From positions 1,612,001 to 1,676,000 of the forward strand of contig ML978123.1 in NCBI GenBank assembly GCA_010015805.1: DNA of 64,000 bases, in the 5' to 3' direction. Positions 40,942 to 54,534 of the stretch are shown piece by piece. Under the pieces are notes generated by a model. The model did not search any database. It had not been told where the DNA came from and saw only the letters and a list, made by a program, of their open reading frames with translations. Origin of the DNA: Rhizodiscina lignyota (taxonomy: Eukaryota). Numbering within the stretch: the first letter of the stretch is position 1; the number at the start of each line of letters is the position of its first letter. The position numbers and the translations under genes were made by a program.

Positions 40942-43479
40942 ATGGCCAGCCCTCCTGCAAGAGAAGGTCCTTCGGACGACCTGCGCTACGGATCACGCCA
41001 AACGTACCTTGGGAAGCGTGAACATCAACAACTCGAACTGCTTCGCCGACAGGTGGCAGAAGATGCCCAGGAAGAACGGGACCTTGGCGGGAAGCTCACA
41101 CAAAAGGAGCGCGACACCTTTGCTCGCAATCGAGAATTGCTCAAATTCACCGAACAGCGGCTACGCATCGCCGGCGAGATTGATGACGACGTATACGAAC
41201 TCCCTGATTCTACATCTACCTCACGAAAGCGGAAAGCGGAAGTATATTCGAAGCGGCAAGTCGAGAAAGACGAGCATGGCAGAGAAAAGTTTATGACAGA
41301 GCACGAGGAGTGGGAGAGGGAGCAGTTGGCCAAGGTGAAGGCTCATGCGCGGCGGGATGATGAGGAAGAGGTTGATGATATCGCCAACTACGAGTACGTC
41401 TGGGATTCTTCGCAGGGAATCAACTTCGTCACGGACGCACCACTTCCTGGATCAACAGATCAGGTACTTCAGAAGCAGCTGGATGCTGCGGAGGCCAGAG
41501 CAGCAGGCATCGAACAGACGAGGAAGAGTCTTCCAATGTACCAATACCGCGAACAGATACTGGAGGCCGTGGCCAAATTCCAGGTTCTTATTGTCGTTGG
41601 AGAGACCGGAAGTGGAAAAACAACGCAACTCCCGCAATATCTTCACGAAGCTGGATATACTAAGGGGGGATTAAAAGTTGGTTGCACTCAGCCAAGGCGA
41701 GTGGCGGCAATGAGCGTGGCTGCCCGCGTGGCGGAGGAGATGGGTGTGAGACTGGGAAATGAAGTTGGCTACGCTATTCGCTTTGAGGATAAGACGAACG
41801 ACAAGACAGTCCTCAAGTACATGACAGATGGTATGCTCCTTCGAGAGTTCTTGACGGAGCCAGATCTTTCAGGCTACTCAGTCATCATGATTGACGAGGC
41901 ACACGAGCGTACGTTGCATACCGATATTCTCTTCGGCTTGCTTAAGGATATCACGCGGCATCGGCCAGAACTCAAACTCTTGATTTCCTCTGCAACCATG
42001 GATGCCCAAAAGTTCTCAACATTCTTTGACGACGCGCCAATCTTCAACGTTCCTGGAAGGCGATTCCCAGTCGACATATACTACACACCACAACCAGAAG
42101 CAAACTATCTTGCGGCAGCCGTTACTACAATCTTTCAAATACACATGTCTCAACCAGCCGGTGATATCCTGGTGTTTTTGACCGGCCAGGAGGAGATAGA
42201 AACTGTGCAGCAGAACCTCGAGGATACTTCCCGCAAGCTTGGAAACCGCGCTAGAGAGCTCATCGTCGCACCCGTATACGCCAATCTCCCCACAGACCTT
42301 CAGTCTAAGATCTTTGAGCCGACGCCTCCTAATGCTCGAAAGGTAGTTCTCGCAACCAACATTGCTGAGACTTCCCTTACGATAGACGGAATCGTTTATG
42401 TCATCGATCCTGGCTTTGTGAAGGAAAATGTCTACAATCCAAAGACCGGCATTGAGTCACTTATTGTCACGCCTTGTTCGAGAGCCTCGTCTGAACAGCG
42501 CGCCGGAAGAGCAGGACGTGTCGGGCCTGGCAAGTGTTTTCGTTTGTACACGAGGTGGGCTTACCATCATGAACTGAACGAGAACACGCAGCCGGAAATT
42601 CAGAGGACGAATTTGAATGGTGTCGTCGTACAACTCAAAGCAATTGGGGTTAACAATCTCATTGAGTTTGACTTCTTGGATGCTCCTCCGGCAGATAACC
42701 TCATCAGAGCGCTGGAGCAGCTGTATGCTTTGGGCGCTCTGAATGACAAAGGTGAACTTACAAAGATTGGTCGACAGATGGCAGAATTTCCGACAGATCC
42801 CATGCTTGCCAAAGCAATTCTTGCAGCTGACTCATTTGGCTGCGTTGAGGAGGTCATCAGCATTGTCGCCATGCTCGGTGAAGCTGGAGCTCTGTTCTAT
42901 CGACCGAAGGATAAGAAGATACACGCCGACTCTGCACGTAGCAGATTCACAATCAAGGAGGGTGGCGATCATCTCACCCTTCTCAACATCTGGAACCAGT
43001 GGCTCGACTCGGACTACAGCTATGTCTGGGCTCGAGAAAATTTCCTGCAGCAAAGGAGTCTCACTCGCGCGCGTGACGTTCGAGAGCAGCTCGAGAAGCT
43101 GTGCGAGCGAGTTGGCATCGTCATGTCAACAAAGGGCGCTGGAGATATTCCGACATTGGCGCGGGCTCTCACCTCCGGTTTTTTCACCAACGCGGCGAGA
43201 TTGCAGCGAGATGGGCGCAGCTATCGTGCTGCTAAACACTCAGGCATGCAGGTCTACCTGCACCCTTCAGGCGTCCTACGACCTGAGGATAGGGTCAAGT
43301 GGATCGTCTATTACGAATGCGTGTATACGTCTGAGTGCTATGTGCGGGGTGTACTGCCCACAAAGCCTGAGTGGCTGATCGAGGCGGCACCGCACTACTA
43401 CAAGAAGGATGAAATCGAGAAGCTGGGCGATGGCAGGAAGATGCCCAAGAAGGAGGGAGCTGTTGGCTCTGTACTATAA
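40942..43479 (+). CDS. PRP2: Spliceosomal DEAH-box RNA helicase Prp2/Cdc28 (DHX16); intronless, 845 aa
   Basis: [36 protein letters not shown] and QRAGRAGR, followed by HA2 and OB regions. The [12 protein letters not shown]-terminus is of the Prp2/Cdc28 type. Confidence 0.9.
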
Positions 43480-43614: not shown

Positions 43615-44703
43615 TCATAGTAGCCTCTGCCTCGTCAGCAGCTTTGCGTAGTCCCTTCGGGCCTGCACGCGCTCATCTTGTGTCGATGTGCCTTGCCTTG
43701 TGATCCTGAGCCATCTGAAAATAATATTCTGTCCCGGTATGGCTCCTGATATTTCCTTGAATGGCGTGTCCCGATATTGCTCGACTAATTGATCAAAAGC
43801 CGTCATACTCTCTGCGAAAACGGAAGTAAACTCATCCTGCGCCTTCTGAGCCTCTTCGTAGAACTCGTCAGGTATCCGCTCTAGATAATTCTCCATCGTG
43901 TCGTCTGGGTTGGCCAGTAGCCTCTTGAAAACGATCTCGCGAGTCAGCGGCTTCTTGTCCGGGGCCGAGCCGCTTAGACCACGCTTCGCCAGATCCATAT
44001 ATGCAGAGAACTTGATCTTGACGCGCTCACCAGTGCTGTCGAAGCGTATCACGAAGCCTTCTTCATTTGGCCTGTTGAGCTCATGTATTGCATCAAGTGG
44101 TAAAAGTCCGCAAGGAAAGGATTCCGCTGCCCGGATTCCGAGCGCCTTTGCCACCTCTGGCAGGTCCTTATTTGGGGTATCGAAGCCTGTATAGGTGTCT
44201 AGCACAGCTATCAAAACGAGCTCCCGGCGGCCGTTGTAATCAATCAGATGTCGGTCCTGGGGATAGACCACCTCGAAGCAATAAGTCTTGCTTGGATCGC
44301 ACTTCTCTTCAAGTCCAGTAGCCTGCGCCATCTTCTTCCCTTCGACTGCCTGCGGACTGAGGAAACTTCCACGGGTGGCCATGAGCCATGTTCCTTTATA
44401 GCAAAACCACACTCCGAGCGATCCATCGACTTTCTCAAGAACGGTGAAGCGGTTCGTATCCTCAGTCTTGTGCAGGCCGTCACTGTAGTTGAAGAATTTT
44501 GGCATGGGCCTGGCGACTACTCTCGATGTCCCTTGCTCGATGACTAGCCCGCGTGCCATCATTGTACATGGATTCCAGGCCTTCTTCCATTGTGCCCGAT
44601 CAGTGTAGTTATAAATCGTCAAAGGGTGGTCTGGATGCTTCGATTTCTTGATAAGAGGAGGCTTGGCCTGAACCAGAGCCTCCAGGTCGTCTTCGAGCGT
44701 CAT
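43615..44703 (-). CDS. Stand-alone ATP-dependent RNA ligase of the T4 Rnl1/RnlA type; intronless, 362 aa
   Basis: IYNY..W, ARGLVI, VVARPMPKFFN, motif I EKVDGSLG, ATRGSF.SPQA, TYCFEVV (III), EEGFVIRF (IV), RVKIKF (V) and a C-terminal PDEFY. Confidence 0.88.
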   Translation of the reverse strand: MTLEDDLEALVQAKPPLIKKSKHPDHPLTIYNYTDRAQWKKAWNPCTMMARGLVIEQGTSRVVARPMPKFFNYSDGLHKTEDTNRFTVLEKVDGSLGVWFCYKGTWLMATRGSFLSPQAVEGKKMAQATGLEEKCDPSKTYCFEVVYPQDRHLIDYNGRRELVLIAVLDTYTGFDTPNKDLPEVAKALGIRAAESFPCGLLPLDAIHELNRPNEEGFVIRFDSTGERVKIKFSAYMDLAKRGLSGSAPDKKPLTREIVFKRLLANPDDTMENYLERIPDEFYEEAQKAQDEFTSVFAESMTAFDQLVEQYRDTPFKEISGAIPGQNIIFRWLRITRQGTSTQDERVQARRDYAKLLTRQRLL

Positions 44704-45426
44704 GTTCAAATACCGTCTGAAATTATACACTATTGATTTAACGGAAATATAACTCGAAGCGATTTCAAGCCGTAGTCACTATAATATAAAATTTAGCTTT
44801 GCAAAAGAAAGAGTAGAAAAGAAGAATTGAGAAGGCATAGAAGCAAACGGTAAGACCAGTCACCGCATGAGTGACTGGACATCTACGGACATAGCCATGG
44901 CATCGGTCAGCTGCGCCTCAGCAGCCTCAGTCTATTTCCGGCTGATTCGCAAGATCCAAGTCGGCTTCTACTGGGCTTTATTTTATTTTATAAATTCGCT
45001 CTATCGCCAAATGCTAGTAGGGGGCCTTGGCCTGGCGCTCGTACAAACCTTTATGAGATGGCAGTGAGCGGTGCGGTGTCCGTAGTTCACCTTGGAAGGC
45101 TAGCTTCCGTTTGTAAGCCCTGCTAGCGTTCGGCGAAAGAGCGAATTCATCACGGTACCAACTGGTGTCAGCGAACTGTGTCCGGCATGATTTACTCTCT
45201 ACGTCTTAATGAAGCCGTGAGATACTATGTGGAACAAGCTTGGAGAGATGTCACATGTGAGAGCGTGCAAGTGCTAAGGATGCGGACCATGCCGTTAAGG
45301 AGGCACGGGAGGCCAACAAATTAGAATCCTCCGGTGTCGGCCCGAACCCAGACGGCAGGTCAAATAATACAGCTCGAATTTCTTCGTCAAAGTCTCCAAC
45401 TGCAACCCCGTCCAGTATCTCGAAGA

Positions 45427-46763
45427 ATGAGTGCGGTTCGTAACAGCCTCCATGCAAAGGCTCCAGCCTTGAGAGTATCCAATGGCGCACTCAAAAACCG
45501 CTCTCCCTCATGGCCTTCCATGCCTCGGGCAGCATCGTCGGTAGCGGTAACACCCACGTCTCAACCGTCCACTCAACAATCGGCCATTCGTAAGGCTCTT
45601 GATGCCGACGGTCCACGCACGGATTGGACGAGGGAGCAGATATCTGAGATTTACAACGCGCCGCTGTTTGATCTCCAATACCAGGCTGTATGAGGCAAAT
45701 TCCACGCTCACAGCACCTATCGAGGTTGTGCAGCGGGATATCGTGCGCTAACGTTGTTGTGTCTTGACTCTTGCAGGCCACTGTCCATCGTCGATTCCAT
45801 AAGTCAGGGGCTATTCAGATGTGCACTCTGATGAACATCAAGACTGGCGGCTGCTCCGAAGACTGCAAGTACTGCGCACAGAGCTCTCGATATAATACCG
45901 GCCTCAAGGCCTCCAAGATTGTTACCGTTGAGTCTGTGCTGGAAGCCGCACGTGTCGCAAAAGAGAATGGGTCGTCACGCTTCTGCATGGGTGCGGCCTG
46001 GAGGGACATGCGAGGGCGCAAGACGAACCTTGCACGAATCACGGAGATGGTCAAGGGCGTGCGGGCTTTGGGGATGGAGGCATGCGTCACACTCGGGATG
46101 ATTGATGCTGCTCAGGCGCGCGAGCTCAGAGATGCTGGACTGACTGCGTACAACCACAATGTCGACACGAGCAGGGAGTTTTATCCAAATGTCATTACGA
46201 CCCGCTCGTACGATGAGCGGCTAGCCACCATCGACAATGTCCGTCAAGCAGGCATCAATGTGTGCAGTGGAGGCATCTTGGGCTTGGGCGAGGAGGCTAA
46301 GGACCATGTTGGTCTCGTACATACCGTGGCCACGATGCCGAGCCACCCAGAAAGCTTTCCCGTCAATGCGCTTGTCGCGATCAAGGGGACGCCATTGGAA
46401 GGACAGAATCCCGTCCCCTTTGACGCAATCGTACGCACAATTGCCACTGCCAGGCTTGTTCTCCCCAAGACTATCATTAGATTGGCGGCCGGCAGGAACA
46501 CGATGTCTGAGGAGAAGCAGATGATGTGTTTCCAGGCGGGCGCCAACGCGGTATTTACCGGCGAGAAGATGCTCACGACGGATTGCAATGGCTGGGACGA
46601 AGACAAGAGAATGTTTGAGCGCTGGGGTCTCACTCCGATGGCGGCCCACAATGACGGTGAGCCAGCTAAACCGGCTGAATCAACGTTACGGAACGAGACT
46701 CTTGTTCCATGGCAGCACATACAGCCCGGTGCACCAGCAGCCGCGGCGGCGATCTCGCAATGA
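45427..46763 (+). CDS. bioB: Biotin synthase (radical SAM), mitochondrial
   Basis: CSEDCKYC, RFCMGAAWR, YNHNVD, CSGGILGLGE and IRLAAGR. One intron at about 45688-45776. Confidence 0.97.
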
Positions 46764-46863
46764 AGTCGTAAGAGCTAACCTTTTGTCTCTTTGGTTTGTC
46801 ATCTTCGCAGATGACGGTCTCCGAATTTATAGATGCATTGACGTGGCGAACGAATTGTACTGT

Positions 46864-48252
46864 TTAGAGTTTCGATGTTTCCATTTTGGTGACGTCTTCC
46901 ACGCCGTCCAGCCCATCTGGCAACAGCAGCCACTTCTCAATCCTCGCCACCAATCTGTCGACTTGGTCGAATGTATTCCCAGCATGCAAGCAAACTCGGA
47001 CCCTACGCGTGGGCGCCGTCGGTGGCACAATAGCCCTTACGACAAAACCACCGTCCTGGCAAAACCTGGCCAGCGACCTGGGGTGCTGAGTGAGGAGGCA
47101 AAATATCGGTGACTCTGGGCATTCCTCCCCAATCTGGAGGGCCTTTTGAGTCAGTGATTCATGCCGATGTCTGCAAATCATCCTGGTGAGGCTACCATGT
47201 AGGTGCTCGAGCAGGCGTTGCAGATGCAACATGTGCTATTCAGTCCGTTAGTTGTGCCTCAGTCTGTCAAACGCTGCCGTACCGCATCCATTGTTCCCTG
47301 CTCCAACAGTCCATACGCCGCACGAATAGCGGCCAAGGCTGGGAAAGGCATGAAGGTCGTGTAGATGAGAGGCCTGGCATAATTGATCAAGTATGACCGT
47401 ACCAAAGGAGAACAAAGCAGAATCGCTGCACCTTGTTAGATGAGGCCGTTGAGCTTAAATGTGGTCAAAGATCCAACCTCCGCTGCATGCTAATGATTTT
47501 CCAAACGTATGGAGCCTGGCAAACACTCGCTTCTCCACTCCGAGCTTGTTTACGAGCCCACGCCCAAGTGAGCCGATGACACCAGTTGCGTGCGCCTCGT
47601 CCACAATAACGTGGCAGTTGTTGTGAGGAAAAAGGCTCTCTGCTAAGAAGACGATATCTGTGAGAGGTGCCAGATCGCCATCCATGCTATAGACTGACTC
47701 CACCGCAAGAAAGACGTTTTTCTTGCCAGCTTTGATTGCCGGGTCCTCGGCGACGAGCTCTTCTAGAACGCTTCCAAGGTCGGACGTTGAATTATGCTTA
47801 AACTTTCTTTTTGCACCAGCGCGAGACAATCGCATTCCTTCGTGGACGCTCGCGTGGATAAGCTCGTCGTATACTATGATATCTCCTGGTTGCGGTATGC
47901 AAGCGAAGAATCCTGCATTGGCATCGAATCCAGAGTTCCAAAGCAGACCTGCTGAGGCCCCGTGAAAATTGGCAATGTCCTCCTCGAGCTTTTCGGCATA
48001 GACAGAATTGCCATCGAGCAGCCTTGAGCCGCCAGACCCCAGAGCAAATTCATGGGATCGTGCCGAGAGCTCATTCAGAAACGCGTCCCGAAGAAGCGCT
48101 GATGTTGACAGCGACAGGAAGTCGTTTGACGAAAAGTCGACTGCATCCGGAGGTGACGCCTTGAGCTCTCGAAACAGTGATTTTTCTCTCCGCGACTGCA
48201 ATCTTGCAAGAAGACTCGTCTCCAATTGCGACATGGGCTTGGGACCACTCAT
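46864..48252 (-). CDS. bioF: 8-amino-7-oxononanoate (KAPA) synthase, peroxisomal
   Basis: DFSSNDFLSL, GSRLLDGN, HASVHEG, ESVYSMDGD, DEAH and TFGK (PLP lysine). C-terminal SKL is a PTS1. The start is 48252 or 48234. Confidence 0.95.
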
Positions 48253-48462
48253 GACGACTTGAAAACCTATCCCTTTCATTCGAAAAATGTGCTGATAGAG
48301 CGTGAATTTCTTCTTTCGACTTTCCAAGGGCCCAGGCACCCGGCAGGGGTGGAGACCCGTGCTGCGATGTCGGGGTCGCTCACTGAAAGTCTAAAATTTG
48401 CTGAGAAGCTCTCTTTTCATTCTGAACCTCAACAAGACTTGGTACGGAGAGGAGAGGAGAGG

Positions 48463-51066
48463 ATGCAGCGCATCGGCTCGGCTCTATGGCCATCTCTTCA
48501 GTGTTTTCAAGTGTACGGGGCAAACACCAATGTCGGCAAGACGATCGTTTCGACTGCTCTGTGTAAAGCATGGCGTGGAAAGCTGGATCTGAGTGTTCAT
48601 TATCTCAAGCCAGTCTCGACGGGGCCGTTGGATGATGCGGACGTCAAGTAAGCAAATCAAGAATTGTGCAGCCAGGCCCATGGACGAATTGACGTTCGAA
48701 TTAGCCACATGGCGAAGTTCGCGCCCGGCGTAAATACGAAAACACTCTTCCAGTTCTCGAAGCCCTTGAGTCCGCACATTGCTGCTAAAGATGCCGGAGA
48801 TGTATGCTCACGATCCATCCGTGGACCTTGCTACGCCGCCTTGAATAACAATACATCCTCTACAGATCCCGCCAGACTTGACTGTGCAGCAGCGCACCTA
48901 CCATGATTTGTCCGAAGCTGTCACCAAGGCAGACGTCGCAATTGTCGAGACCGCGGGCGGAGTGCTGTCTCCAGCGCCTTCAGGGAGCGTCCAGGCAGAT
49001 GTCTACCGGCCGCTACGGCTCCCTGTTCTACTCGTAGGCGACTACCACCTCGGTGGCATTTCGAGCACTATTGCGGCCTATGAATCGCTTCGCATTCGTG
49101 GCTATGACGTTCTTGCCCACTTCATTTTTGAAGATGCCGAGTATCAAAACTCCAAGTACTTGACTGATTTCTTCCTGGGCAACAAGGTGTCCACGATTGA
49201 GCTGCCGAAGCCACCAAGACAGGTCGAGGATGCAATGAAAGACTTACAGAATATGCAGACATATTACTCTGACGTCGCTGCCTCGCATGCTATTTTGGAA
49301 GCGGTTGAACGCCTTGGTCACCAACACGAAGCTCGCATTAAGAGGCTTGGTGAGATGTCGGCGCGAGCGGCAGACACCATCTGGTATCCGTTTACTCAGC
49401 ACAAGGGGCGGCGTCCCGAGGACATAGTTGTAATTGACTCTGCGTTCGGGGACAATTTCGATACGCTGAGCAACACTATGAGCCCCGAAGCTTCCATTCT
49501 GACGCCGGCAATGGATGGTTCAGCGTCCTGGTGGACCCAAGGGCTCGGGCATGGAAACCCCTCGCTTGCTTTGTCTGCGGCTTCTGCTGCTGGTCGCTAC
49601 GGGCATGTCATGTTTGCTGGAGCCATTCATGAGCCCGCTCTGTCTCTTGCCGAGATGTTACTGCAGCATCACGACAATCCCCGGCTAGCGAAGGTCTTTT
49701 ACTCTGACAATGGCAGCACCGGAATGGAGGTCGCCGTGAAGATGGCCCTGAGGGCGGCAAGGACTAGATACGGATGGGATCATGCGCAAGAGGATATTGG
49801 AATTCTGGGATTGCGCGGAAGCTACCATGGAGACACGATGGGAGTAATGGATTGCTCTGAGCCGTCGACGTACAATGACAGGATTGAGTGGTATAACCCA
49901 AAGGGGTGTAAGATTCCACTCCCCTAGAGTCTAAAAGGATAACTGACGGCTCACAACGGCTTAGACTGGCTCGACTACCCGACCGTTATCATGAGAGCAG
50001 GCCGGTGGTTTGTCGAACCACCGCACGGTCAAGAAGCCGCTTTTGGAAATGCGCAGTCTTTTGATTCTCTAAACGACATCTTCGATCTGAGAAGGAGAGA
50101 AGATGCCGTCTACACCCGGTATATTGAGAAAACTCTTACCGAATTGCGCGATGCTGGTCGCAAGTTTGGTGCACTGATCCTGGAACCCGTGATCCTTGGA
50201 GCAGGCGGCATGAATTTCATGTGAGAGAGCCAAAGACACGATATTTTTGCAACATGGCTAACAGTATATCCAGAGACCCTCTTTTCCAGCATGCGTTGAT
50301 CAAGGCTGTCAGGAACAGGCCGGATCTCATAGGCACGCAAAAATTGCGCAAACCTGGGTCACTGGATTCATGGAGTGGGCTTCCCGTTGTCTTTGACGAG
50401 GTCTTTACCGGACTGTACCGCCTCGGACGCTTTAATTGCTCGAGTTTTCTTCAAGCACAGCCCGACATCGTCGTCAACGCGAAGCTTTTGACTGGTGGAC
50501 TTATCCCCCTGTGCACGACGACCGCCAGCCAAGACATTTTTGACGCCTTTTTGAGCGACGAAAAGGCTGATGCCCTGCTTCACGGCCACAGCTACACTGC
50601 ACATGCTGTTGGATGTGCTGTTGCAGTAGATAGCCTTGATGCGATGATGCAAATGGAGAAGACTGGCAAGTGGGACGAGTTTCGGCGGAGCTGGGCCACA
50701 GACGAAGTGACCGGTGAGGGCTGCTGGAGCATGTGGAGCAAAGAGTTTGTCACGAAAGTGACGAATAAAGAGTCTATCGATGGCGTCTTTGCGATTGGCT
50801 CAGTCCTTGCTCTCACCCTGAAGGACGCCGCTGGGGGCGGTAAGATCGTAACATAGGTATCAATTTTCTCGACAGCTAACGACGTTCTAGGATACAATTC
50901 CCTTGCCGCGCAAGGGCTGCATTCCAGACTGCTTGACATTGGAGACAAGGGCTGGCGCATCCACTCTCGTGTTCTCGGAAACGTGCTCTACCTGATGACG
51001 AGCCAAATTACGACCTGGGAAACATTGAAGAATGTTGAACAATTCATTCTCGAGAGCGTGAATTGA
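48463..51066 (+). CDS. bioDA: Bifunctional dethiobiotin synthetase / DAPA aminotransferase
   Basis: BioD motifs GANTNVGKT, YLKPVSTG and ETAGGV are fused to BioA motifs WYPFTQH, DGSASWW, YHGDT, FDEVFTG, AKLLTGG and HGHSY. The last exon ends in TGA at 51066. Confidence 0.96.
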
Positions 51067-52702: not shown

Positions 52703-53815
52703 TCAAAGTTGCAGTACAAGCTGTCCTCGATCACCAGCAGCTTCTGACATGACTGTTCCCATTTCTCCACTAAGCTTCGTGATCTTTTCGCGCACCCAAT
52801 CGTGGTCTGGATCGTTGGAATCGAGCAACTCTGCTTGGAAGCGGCTGATTCTCGTCGGGAATATCTCCAAGCTCTTGAGATGGAGGCCTTCCTGGTCTTT
52901 CCCTTCGACTGTGACTCTCCAGATGGCGCTTAGGTCGTTTCTGTAACTTTGATTGATTGCGTAGTCGTCCACAAAATCGCCGCAGCCGTAGATGATAAGC
53001 TTTCCTTTGTATTGCTCCACGCCTTGCACATGGTGCGAGGAGTGACCGTGGATGATGTCGACGCCACATTCGTCTATTAGAAAGTGAGCGAGGTCACGAG
53101 CCTCGGGATCTGGGCGCCAAAGATAGTTCGGCCCCCAGTGGACGCTGAAAACACGCAACGGGGCTGCCGCTCCGTTCGCAGAATGCGGCTGTCCTTTTGA
53201 TAATTGAGCACGAAGCCTTTCGCGCGTCTTAGGAGAATAGTCAATGAGGTGAAATTGCGGCACGGCGGCCCAGTCTCGGGGATGATCAGAAGCTGAGACT
53301 ATTTCCACTGTATATGCTGGAGAACCGTCGGAATGATGCTTTGGCAAAGTCAGCCTCGCTGGTTTCAAGGCCTCTTCTGTCGTTTCGCCAGCTCCAGCAA
53401 AGGCTATTCCGGCCTGTTTGAGCGTGTGTACGGTTTCGATAAGACCCTCAAACTTGAAATCTAGTGTATGATTGTTCGCGAGACTTGCATAATCAACGTT
53501 TGCTGCTTGTAATGCGACTACATTTGCAGGGTGCATCCGATAGTTGAACACTTTGTTTGGCCAAGCATTCGGATGAGTAGTAACGGACGTCTCCAGGTTG
53601 ATTAGGTTGAGATCAGCCTCATGGAAGAGACCTAGAGTATTGCCCCACGGAGAGACTTCTGTGTATCGGTTCAAATCAGGATTGCGCCTACGAAACCATT
53701 CGACAGTGCTAGCCTCGCCCGGTTCATGGACATGTGTGGCAAACATTTGATCGATGAGCCGTCCGAGCATTACGTCGCCAACAAAATTAAGCCTGAAAAG
53801 TTGTTTAGACGCCAT
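52703..53815 (-). CDS. CapA/PGA_cap-family metallophosphoesterase; intronless
   Basis: GDVMLGR, INLET, SLANNHTLD, SVHWG, IHGHSSHH and YGCGDF. First plausible ATG at 53815. Confidence 0.9.
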   Translation of the reverse strand: MASKQLFRLNFVGDVMLGRLIDQMFATHVHEPGEASTVEWFRRRNPDLNRYTEVSPWGNTLGLFHEADLNLINLETSVTTHPNAWPNKVFNYRMHPANVVALQAANVDYASLANNHTLDFKFEGLIETVHTLKQAGIAFAGAGETTEEALKPARLTLPKHHSDGSPAYTVEIVSASDHPRDWAAVPQFHLIDYSPKTRERLRAQLSKGQPHSANGAAAPLRVFSVHWGPNYLWRPDPEARDLAHFLIDECGVDIIHGHSSHHVQGVEQYKGKLIIYGCGDFVDDYAINQSYRNDLSAIWRVTVEGKDQEGLHLKSLEIFPTRISRFQAELLDSNDPDHDWVREKITKLSGEMGTVMSEAAGDRGQLVLQL

Positions 53816-54534
53816 GTTTGAGTCCTGATATACGGAACTTCTAGCAAAAGTAATAATAGACTTTGTAAGGTAAGAGCACAATGGTGAAAGCTTTGAATCT
53901 GGAGCATTAGTCCGTAGCGAGGTCGGAAGCTCCCGGATCCAATCAATCCATGGCAACGGGGGGAGGGTAGAGTACCGGAGCTGACCCGAGTCCGGGGCCT
54001 TTATTTACCCGAGTTTAGGTCCGTTCCCACCTAGAACTTTGTTTATTCTGCTGTGATTTAGTTCAAACTCTTCGACCAGAATTTCAGGTGTTTCCATAAC
54101 ATTAGACCGTTTAGGTAAAGTCTGATTTCACTTCTGTTCACTGCATTTGCTCAGGGCTAGGTTGTAGTGCGGGCAAGCGAGGCAAGCTCTCACAGGGGGC
54201 CTAGACTCCTCCCTAAAATGGTGATCATGACGAATTTACAACGGGCCGATTCCTCACAAGCGATAAGTCCTGACAGGATTCCTCGAAGCTACGAATGATC
54301 CAGGACTCTAACTCTGCTGGATGCCTAAATCTGTTGATATCCGACACCTCCGTTCGCTTACGATACTCAAAGAGACTTGAGGTACGGTGTGCGGGATACA
54401 GAAACTGCCTCACAGTGAGTCACCTCGTATACAAGAACGGGCTGTAATGGTTACACGTACTGCAACTATACTATAAAGGACGCGCTGAAAGCTCCCTTGG
54501 AGCGTAGCATCAGACTTCCACTCCTCGTTACACC

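Follow-up and report, generated by a model that had tools for sequence, protein, structure and literature searches.

A probable stand-alone RNA ligase of the T4 Rnl1 type encoded in a chromosome of the fungus Rhizodiscina lignyota

Here we describe a gene of the fungus Rhizodiscina lignyota that probably encodes a stand-alone, T4 Rnl1-type RNA ligase. The window, i.e. the whole stretch of DNA analysed, comprises 64,000 nt of contig ML978123.1 (assembly GCA_010015805.1, positions 1,612,001 to 1,676,000 of the forward strand). On its minus strand, an open reading frame (ORF) at 43615-44703 runs from an ATG at 44703 to a stop codon at 43615-43617. Its 362 codons plus stop contain neither an internal stop nor an intron, and the product, here called P0001, is probably a working ATP-dependent RNA ligase, judging from its sequence and predicted structure. 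The stop-to-stop frame extends beyond this start, to 44775; the start at 44703 is favoured because the N-terminus MTLE is common to the three closest relatives (P0002-P0004). An initial annotation of this DNA had described an uninterrupted 362-aa ORF, which our ORF call and translation reproduce exactly. The motifs named there are all found in the translation: IYNY (residues 30-33), RGLV (51-54), ARP.PKFFN (as ARPMPKFFN, 64-72), KVDGS (91-95, with the motif I lysine codon at 44431-44433, as first given), ATRGSF (109-114) and PDEF (278-281).

Profile searches place the protein among T4 Rnl1-type ligases. The Pfam family PF09511 (RNA_lig_T4_1) matches P0001 at E 5.5e-15 with 56.3 bits, against a cut-off of 28.3, and PF09414 matches at E 7.6e-4, under its family cut-off. 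The phage protein profile PHROG 562 (annotated 'RNA ligase and tail fiber protein attachment catalyst') covers residues 6-340 with positions 9-351 of its 377 (E 2.9e-51). In line with the first description of the protein as free of kinase and cyclic-phosphodiesterase domains, neither of these families was found in P0001 by Pfam at E up to 1; only ligase families were. Among proteins of solved structure, phmmer ranks T4 Rnl1 first (E 2e-6), and Trl1 chains gave no phmmer match to P0001 at E up to 1. When solved structures are searched with a profile of the clade to which P0001 belongs (described below), T4 Rnl1 is recovered at E 2.1e-25 (T4 residues 38-302), versus 0.12 for the best Trl1 chain. 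A wider family profile, whose underlying alignment included one T4-like sequence (P0045), gives 6.5e-47 for T4 Rnl1 (T4 residues 4-368) versus 1.5e-8 to 0.27 for Trl1 chains.

The predicted fold agrees with this assignment. An AlphaFold2 (AF2) model of P0001, built on 85 sequences, has a mean predicted local distance difference test score (pLDDT) of 94.7 and a predicted template modelling score (pTM) of 0.88; pLDDT falls below 50 only at residues 244-250, which are predicted to be disordered. With this model as query, Foldseek ranks three T4 Rnl1 entries at the top (E 2.2e-17) and Trl1-LIG next (9.3e-11). VIA-align superposes the model on T4 Rnl1 (2c5u) with Z 26.3 (264 residues aligned, root-mean-square deviation 3.3, model residues 1-292), compared with Z 20-22 for five Trl1-LIG entries, whose alignments end at model residues 242-246.

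Nine residues of P0001 (R51, K91, D93, G94, E144, E215, G216, K229 and K231) are the same in all 85 family members aligned. In the phmmer alignment, where the T4 Rnl1 chain is numbered native +1, K91/D93/G94/E144/E215/G216/K229/K231 fall on T4 K99/D101/G102/E159/E227/G228/K240/K242. We take Glu144 (T4 Glu159) to be motif III; Glu215-Gly216 (T4 Glu227-Gly228) presumably constitute motif IV, and Lys229 and Lys231 (T4 Lys240 and Lys242) are assumed here to represent motif V. On this assignment motifs I, III, IV and V are intact, as the initial annotation had it. The phmmer alignment also pairs R51, K69 and F70 with T4 R54, K75 and F76, and the structural alignment with T4 Rnl1 begins at residue 1. 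According to PMC6379707, from which the role of the motif I lysine in T4 Rnl1 is likewise taken, Arg54 contacts the ATP gamma-phosphate and is essential in T4, and Lys75-Phe76 contact the gamma-phosphate and adenine.

It could be argued that P0001 is instead a 'sealing-only' tRNA splicing ligase of the Mucorales kind, derived from Trl1 and split from its healing domains. Stand-alone Mucorales ligases of 370-390 aa are described as working in tRNA splicing (PMC10946426, PMC10946435), P0001 is of similar size, and the two share a common adenylyltransferase fold (Z ~22). We nonetheless consider this explanation largely refuted and give it little credence. Motif I of Trl1-type ligases, those of Mucorales included, is reported as KxNG (PMC10946426), whereas P0001 has KVDG. 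Trl1-type ligases also carry RxxR right after motif V, the proposed 2'-phosphate site (PMC6379707, PMC10946426), and direct reading of the translation found no RxxR in P0001 residues 232-262, the segment that follows motif V. To this are added the gap between the E-values that the clade profile gives for T4 Rnl1 and the best Trl1 chain, and the structural alignments to Trl1-LIG, which stop at the end of the adenylyltransferase module (residues 242-246), ahead of the C-domain. By sequence and predicted structure, then, P0001 is nearer to T4 Rnl1 than to fungal Trl1, and it does not show the grouping with the Trl1 ligase domain that was named at the outset as speaking against the annotation. The first label, a stand-alone T4 Rnl1-type ligase, is thus upheld by its KxDG motif I, by the clade profile and by the VIA-align scores (26.3 versus ~22).

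Families of RNA ligases are defined by their appended domains, and the C-domain of T4 Rnl1 selects tRNA anticodon-loop breaks (both PMC6379707). By analogy, the all-helical C-domain of P0001 is likely a substrate-recognition module. Full-length profiles extend into it, the clade profile reaching T4 residue 302 and PHROG 562 position 351 of 377, and VIA-align reaches model residue 292 for T4 Rnl1 but only 246 for Trl1. Folded alone, the C-domain (residues 246-362) has a pLDDT of 79.4. The linker that joins it to motif V is longer in P0001-P0006 only, as compared with phage and bacterial homologs (alignment columns 301-340). Short Lys/Arg-rich C-terminal tails resembling nuclear localisation signals are seen on P0003-P0006 and not on P0001. 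Separately, a C-domain profile weakly matches human PDCD10/CCM3 (E 7e-4), near a conserved PDE motif; we take this as a probable chance match between helical sequences.

The surroundings of the gene are those of an ordinary fungal chromosome (Table 1). Pfam matches were obtained for 22 of the 31 long ORFs of the window, among them UGGT, a WD40 protein, Rpn3, Rad54, a sugar transporter, a TRI12-type pump and a P450. Immediate neighbours are a DEAH-box helicase, transcribed towards the ligase gene, and a biotin synthase, transcribed away from it. The interval had first been named PRP2-bioB; helicase and biotin synthase both stand, and the identity of the helicase as PRP2 specifically could not be confirmed. 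Since the spacer between the stop codons of the helicase and the ligase is 135 bp long, there is no room beyond the ligase for a degraded kinase or phosphatase module.

Table 1. Features of the ligase locus, in window coordinates (residue numbers refer to P0001)
Feature	Position	Strand	Evidence
DEAH-box RNA helicase, 845-aa ORF	40942-43479	+	DEAD, Helicase_C, HA2_N, HA2_C, OB_NTP_bind
AT-rich spacer, 135 bp, 39% GC, between convergent helicase and ligase stop codons	43480-43614	.	ORF map, composition
Stand-alone Rnl1-family ATP-dependent RNA ligase ORF (predicted), 362 aa + stop	43615-44703	-	ORF, PF09511, PHROG 562, AF2 model
All-helical C-terminal domain, residues 254-362, PDEF at 278-281	43618-43944	-	AF2 helices 254-361; profile coverage
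Linker, residues 243-253	43945-43977	-	Predicted disorder; longer in P0001-P0006 only
N-terminal part preceding linker	43978-44703	-	VIA-align to T4 Rnl1 2c5u and Trl1-LIG; phmmer alignment to T4 Rnl1
Lys229-Ile-Lys231 codons, aligned with T4 Rnl1 Lys240 and Lys242	44011-44019	-	phmmer alignment; invariant
Glu215-Gly216 codons, aligned with T4 Rnl1 Glu227-Gly228	44056-44061	-	phmmer alignment; invariant
Glu144 codon, aligned with T4 Rnl1 Glu159	44272-44274	-	phmmer alignment; invariant
Lys91 codon, motif I KVDGS, predicted covalent adenylylation site; T4 Rnl1 Lys99	44431-44433	-	Alignment; K91/D93/G94 invariant
Lys69-Phe70 codons, aligned with T4 Rnl1 Lys75-Phe76	44494-44499	-	phmmer alignment; at least 90% conserved
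Arg51 codon, aligned with T4 Rnl1 Arg54	44551-44553	-	phmmer alignment; invariant in 85/85 aligned family members
Divergent intergenic region, 723 bp, shared with biotin synthase; presumed promoter region; holds 33-nt inverted repeat	44704-45426	.	
Biotin synthase, two exon-like ORFs, first of bioB/bioF/bioDA cluster	45427-46763	+	Radical_SAM, BATS
bioF-like aminotransferase	47455-48390	-	Aminotran_1_2
bioD-bioA fusion-like gene	48845-50856	+	AAA_26 + Aminotran_3

Contamination or an assembly chimera, in which a phage or bacterial gene has been misjoined into a fungal scaffold, would account for a family that is mostly phage and bacterial and for a gene without introns. We judge it very unlikely, to the point of giving it almost no weight. 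The gene is flanked by fungal genes at distances of 135 bp and 723 bp, the GC content (GC) of the ligase and its GC at third codon positions (GC3) match those of the flanks, and the nearest phage or bacterial sequence among the matches listed is only ~40% identical. Moreover, one 93,847-nt Logan contig spans 40500-48500 with 0 differences and even depth. The Logan run may be the genome's own source data, so this contig excludes a joining error by one assembler and is not independent support. Even so, fungal neighbours on both sides and a contig across the locus bear out the early argument against contamination. The assembly of a second sequencing run matched short diverged pieces of the helicase and bioB only and is uninformative on the ligase. 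Around the ligase ORF, neither a target-site duplication nor a transposon remnant was found, and the flanking repeats are short chance-level matches only. The correlation of its relative synonymous codon usage with that of its neighbours, 0.39, was considered as a sign of foreign origin and rejected, as other short coding stretches give 0.35-0.44.

Other features of the window were noted in passing. The compact biotin cluster occupies 45427-50856, and an intron-like gap at 45694-45818 splits bioB on the plus strand. The 33-nt inverted repeat between the ligase gene and bioB has arms at 44990-45022 and 45118-45150, which are 85% complementary and 95 nt apart. No further copy of it was found in the window; two other Logan contig records of the same genome contain copies of 45089-45124 and 45118-45157, the repeat's right part, with 3-4 mismatches. 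It may be a small repeat resembling a miniature inverted-repeat transposable element. Farther along, a 433-aa ORF on the minus strand (52703-54004) matches PF09587 PGA_cap, 'Bacterial capsule synthesis protein', at E 1.6e-70; with this bacterial-looking family, it is possibly a second candidate for an old gene transfer.

Close relatives of P0001 are few. In a 90%-clustered protein collection, where 45 of the candidates scored reached E 1e-3 or better, the full-length relatives are P0002 (67% identity, E 7e-165), P0003 and P0004 (55%), P0005 (51%) and P0006 (50%). P0007, a partial sequence, has 52% identity, and all further matches have at most 40%. These close relatives are singletons from Logan or JGI assemblies and carry no informative name or taxon label; of 20 relatives whose clusters were consulted, none has a more telling name than 'RNA ligase' or 'hypothetical protein'. 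A profile of the clade finds 2903 proteins at E up to 1e-40 among 8000 candidates scored, and sets 14 proteins with more than 390 bits apart from a plateau at ~337 bits. In all, 21 sequences form the clade (P0001-P0006, P0007, P0052-P0056, P0058, P0060, P0068, P0191 and P0215-P0219), its members being 33-67% identical to P0001. Three of them, P0053 (670 aa), P0215 (699 aa) and P0058 (726 aa), are ligase-kinase-phosphatase fusions. More broadly, the phosphatase domain HAD_PNKP is present in 9 of 19 relatives scanned, and seven of these nine also have the kinase domain AAA_33, fused behind the ligase. Long acidic low-complexity tails follow the ligase module in P0054, P0056 and P0191; that of P0191 consists of repeated 'FPPEPE' units and stands at the place of the kinase-phosphatase modules in P0053 and P0058.

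Searches of other collections added no close member. Single-protein scans of viral contigs with P0001, P0056 and P0053 returned no relatives, and a genome-contig scan with P0001 gave one weak match, to a Treponema metagenome-assembled genome (28% identity over residues 197-311). A metagenome scan with the close-clade alignment yielded 134 stretches, all at 40% identity or less. No clade members were found by tblastn with 11 clade proteins among 81 loci, and P0056 has no cluster of its own in the ESM Atlas. A search for longer proteins recovered only two distant metallophosphatase-kinase-ligase fusions (28-34% identity).

The wider family, by comparison, is very large. An exhaustive representative search found 7456 clusters at E<=1e-3, 4127 at E<=1e-10 and 804 at E<=1e-30. 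Matches were obtained in 856 phage records, all below 60% identity (28-35% among the matches listed), in 560 IMG/VR stretches (33-40% in the best 80 of 560) and in 37 plasmid records. The ESM Atlas clusters nearest to P0001 are mostly from Uroviricota, with some from Nucleocytoviricota. In Bacillus phage vB_BanS-Thrax2 and Arthrobacter phage Seahorse, a polynucleotide kinase directly follows the ligase gene. In Streptomyces phage Belfort, the kinase lies three genes downstream, among tRNA genes, and both enzymes are encoded inside a phage tRNA block (Ser, Leu, Val, Leu; L164 2715-6525), a placement that fits a tRNA-centred repair role of the family. Such kinase adjacency and fusion mark a setting in which RNA ends are healed and sealed, comparable to the Pnkp-Rnl1 pathway of T4 (PMC10946426). 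The description of such ligases as typical of phages and bacteria is accurate in this respect: the wider family is overwhelmingly from these sources and has an RNA-repair gene context.

To place P0001 within this family, we built trees from rows picked by the analyst from the search matches, with sequences trimmed to their first 400-420 residues, i.e. the ligase module only. A clade containing P0001 is recovered in all of them: as 16 rows with support 100 by FastTree (197 rows) and support 99 by a quick IQ-TREE run under a mixture model (102 rows), and as 21 rows with support 99 by a quick IQ-TREE run and 97/98 by a careful one (61 rows each; the last values are ultrafast bootstrap (UFBoot) and Shimodaira-Hasegawa-like approximate likelihood ratio test (SH-aLRT)). 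It is present in 200 of the 200 bootstrap trees examined for the careful tree, and its core of six, P0001-P0006, appears in every tree with support 98-100. The maximum-likelihood phylogeny thus confirms that P0001 belongs to a well-supported, distinct clade within the Rnl1-type family. In the FastTree and 102-row trees, this clade branches several nodes inside the family, next to a sister group that holds ligase-kinase-phosphatase fusions and, in the 102-row tree, nine viral contigs as well (support 85-90). The quick 61-row tree likewise places it several nodes deep, there as sister to a viral contig and one representative (support 91). When rooted on the T4-like outgroup, every tree has at least one non-clade family row outside the clade. 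The stem branch of the clade in the careful tree measures 0.45 and its internal branches are long. What the trees display, then, is a distinct, old and rare lineage inside a phage-dominated family, with donor and nesting unproven.

Taking these observations together, we favour, with moderate confidence, the view that the gene is real and that its product, probably functional, is an ATP-dependent RNA ligase of one module belonging to the T4 Rnl1 lineage; that the gene passed long ago from a phage or bacterium; and that the enzyme serves RNA repair in parallel to Trl1. The gene itself, its family, fold, conserved catalytic residues, surroundings and rarity are established by the data; we infer what the enzyme does, on which substrate and to what end, and that the gene arrived by transfer. 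That it came horizontally from a phage or bacterium is likely, though short of proof; this is the most economical reading because ~21 clade members stand against thousands of phage and bacterial ones. On this history, the gene would have entered a eukaryotic lineage long ago and its composition would since have adapted fully.

Several observations pull in the other direction. With regard to family, P0001 scores 44.5 bits against the NCBIfam equivalog model for T4 RnlA (TIGR02308), well under the cut-off of 242.25. The label 'T4 Rnl1/RnlA-like' consequently holds for the wider family, as defined by PF09511 and PHROG 562, and fails at the equivalog level; by its sequence, P0001 is best described as a member of the broad Rnl1-like family and not as the T4 enzyme's ortholog. 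With regard to the C-domain, its comparison on its own with that of T4 Rnl1 gives Z 5.4, rank 4 of 48,161, amid helical noise. Of 55 C-domains from the family, the Pfam model T4_Rnl1_C (PF20819) hit one (E 0.014), and a search of the PDB with a C-domain profile (E up to 10) did not recover T4 Rnl1. With regard to partners, Pfam scanning of the window's ORFs of at least 150 aa revealed no kinase-phosphatase gene. With regard to origin, the GC of the ligase (0.521) and its GC3 (0.595) fall inside the values spanned by 13 coding stretches nearby and bear no foreign trace. The careful tree makes the clade sister to nearly all rows, with only the T4-like outgroup and one representative outside, on a weak backbone (62/0 and 86/80) and with a bootstrap that had not fully settled. 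The clade's place in the family is thus unstable, and the trees do not show the direction or source of any transfer. Finally, that the clade is eukaryotic is a guess, resting on the acidic tails of P0054, P0056 and P0191 and the basic tails of P0003-P0006. The proposal of horizontal acquisition made in the initial annotation accordingly stands in part: it gains from the rarity of the clade against a huge phage and bacterial family, and not from composition, which is like that of the flanks, or from nesting among phage sequences, which is unstable.

Some of these observations lend weight to ancient vertical inheritance, whereby an Rnl1-type ligase, perhaps a fusion, was present in early eukaryotes or fungi and was lost nearly everywhere, with no transfer at all. 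The composition of the gene is fully native; the clade is old and diverse, as its range of 33-67% identity, its stem of 0.45 and its long internal branches attest; and the careful tree, instead of nesting it among viral rows, makes it sister to almost all the others. Several Rnl1-family genes also occur in other microbial eukaryotes, seven of them in Naegleria, as listed in PMC4408790. We still regard this alternative as unlikely. It would require very many independent losses to arrive at five full-length proteins of at least 50% identity and ~21 clade members, as opposed to thousands from phages and bacteria. A non-clade family row lies outside the clade in every tree rooted on the T4-like outgroup, and the ligase gene is intronless, whereas neighbours such as biotin synthase are split.

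How might the enzyme act? If it follows the course of related ligases, Lys91 of KVDGS would attack ATP to form ligase-AMP, the AMP would move to the 5'-phosphate end of an RNA to give AppRNA, and a 3'-OH end would attack AppRNA, sealing the break. The helical C-domain would pick the substrate, as in T4 Rnl1, which acts on tRNA anticodon-loop breaks. Because P0001 is kin to T4 Rnl1 and not to Trl1, its expected substrate has 2'-OH,3'-OH and 5'-phosphate ends; and because it is without an end-healing domain, it would depend on a trans-acting kinase and phosphatase. The ligase would thus act on ends healed in trans to 3'-OH and 5'-phosphate. Most likely it would mend tRNA or other RNA that has been broken, working alongside Trl1, and a role against ribotoxins, i.e. 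the repair of toxin-cut tRNA, is a reasonable suggestion.

That P0001 functions is predicted because its frame is intact, its catalytic residues are complete, its fold is confident and its nearest kin retain 50-67% identity. The competing idea is that the gene, whether acquired or inherited, is a relic without a role now, unexpressed or persisting neutrally. It draws on the missing healing partner, since no such gene is adjacent, though many relatives are fused to or lie beside one. We think it improbable, more so than vertical inheritance. A 362-codon frame has been kept without a stop, every catalytic residue is kept in relatives down to 33% identity, the whole chain folds with high confidence in AF2, and relatives at 50-67% identity retain full length, a pattern that fits purifying selection.

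Working function in RNA repair can be combined with a more specific proposal: that the fungus keeps only the sealing module of a phage-type fusion, so as to have a 2'-phosphate-independent route beside Trl1, with borrowed healing enzymes, for the rescue of tRNAs whose anticodon loop has been cut by killer toxins or other ribotoxins from competitors. We offer this as a speculation that is rather unlikely to hold in full. Loss of domains from a fused ancestor is possible, because fusions (P0053, P0215, P0058) occur in the clade and a fusion-containing sister group appears in two trees; the ancestral state is ambiguous. If the proposal is true, the enzyme would do in a eukaryote what Rnl1 and Pnkp of T4 do against anticodon nucleases.

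In fungi, RNA sealing is attributed to Trl1. If a second enzyme is at work, some fungi would possess a Trl1-independent means of rejoining broken RNA. Trl1, which is reported to require a 2'-phosphate end, has drawn interest as a target for antifungals (PMC10946435, PMC10946426). The existence of a parallel route, if true, would bear on resistance to tRNA-cutting toxins and on the assumed safety of ligase-directed drugs, and it would be a further case of a phage-style RNA-repair part that has settled in a eukaryotic genome. The clade also provides natural stand-alone and fused versions of one ligase, in which combinations of healing and sealing modules can be compared. The enzyme class, its chemistry and its presence in microbial eukaryotes are already known, and to that extent the gain is incremental; interest would be greater if the clade is eukaryotic and the enzyme a Trl1-independent repair route.

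Among known systems, T4 Rnl1 (gp63; PDB 2c5u, 5tt6, 9do4) is the nearest one of solved structure. Like P0001 (362 aa), it is a single-module protein (374 aa) with an N-terminal sub-domain, a nucleotidyltransferase core with KxDG motif I and an all-helical C-domain after the core, and all its aligned catalytic residues are kept in P0001. The two differ in that structural alignments show only 18-24% identity, P0001 fails the RnlA equivalog model, and its gene, part of a eukaryotic chromosome, has no Pnkp gene close by. The ligases of large actinophages and Bacillus phages (such as Seahorse gp81, Belfort gp146 and the Thrax2 enzyme) are, among the matches listed, the nearest that bear a name, with 28-35% identity at up to 98% query cover and E down to 6e-38. 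They are of the same length class as P0001 and have the same PDEF-containing C-domain, but they are without the longer linker after motif V that marks P0001-P0006, and they adjoin or neighbour a polynucleotide kinase, whereas the fungal ligase has no such neighbour in the window.

The fusions offer a second comparison. P0053 aligns with residues 1-354 of P0001 at 38% identity and shares with it the clade-specific C-terminal signature ICKxLRLxR. P0053 and P0058 add an AAA_33 kinase and a HAD_PNKP phosphatase; P0001 ends where their linker starts, with no remnant of either module. A known ligase-kinase-phosphatase fusion of this sort is, we presume, the baculovirus AcNPV ORF86 type. The canonical trifunctional Trl1 is fused in another manner, with a GTP-dependent kinase and a 2H cyclic phosphodiesterase, both of which P0001 is without.

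A stand-alone RNA ligase is less of a novelty in fungi than the initial annotation implied: the 'sealing-only' Trl1 type of Mucorales and fungal Rnl5 are on record (PMC10946435, PMC10946426, PMC4408790). A stand-alone Rnl1-type ligase in Ascomycota was not found described in the open-access PMC papers and bioRxiv preprints searched. Mucorales MciRNL, of the Trl1-LIG/Rnl6 type, is a monofunctional fungal ligase of ~370 aa that stands apart from the healing enzymes; as characterised in PMC10946426, it has KxNG where P0001 has KVDG, two arginines proposed to recognise the 2'-phosphate, and a need for a 2'-phosphate end. Further cases are collected in PMC4408790, which reports seven Rnl1-family genes in Naegleria gruberi and Rnl5 ligases in 13 fungal genera. 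The fungal examples given there are Rnl5 (DraRnl-like) and not Rnl1. Together, the Naegleria and fungal Rnl5 cases provide a precedent for RNA ligases of phage or bacterial type in eukaryotes, beside the splicing ligase (PMC4408790).

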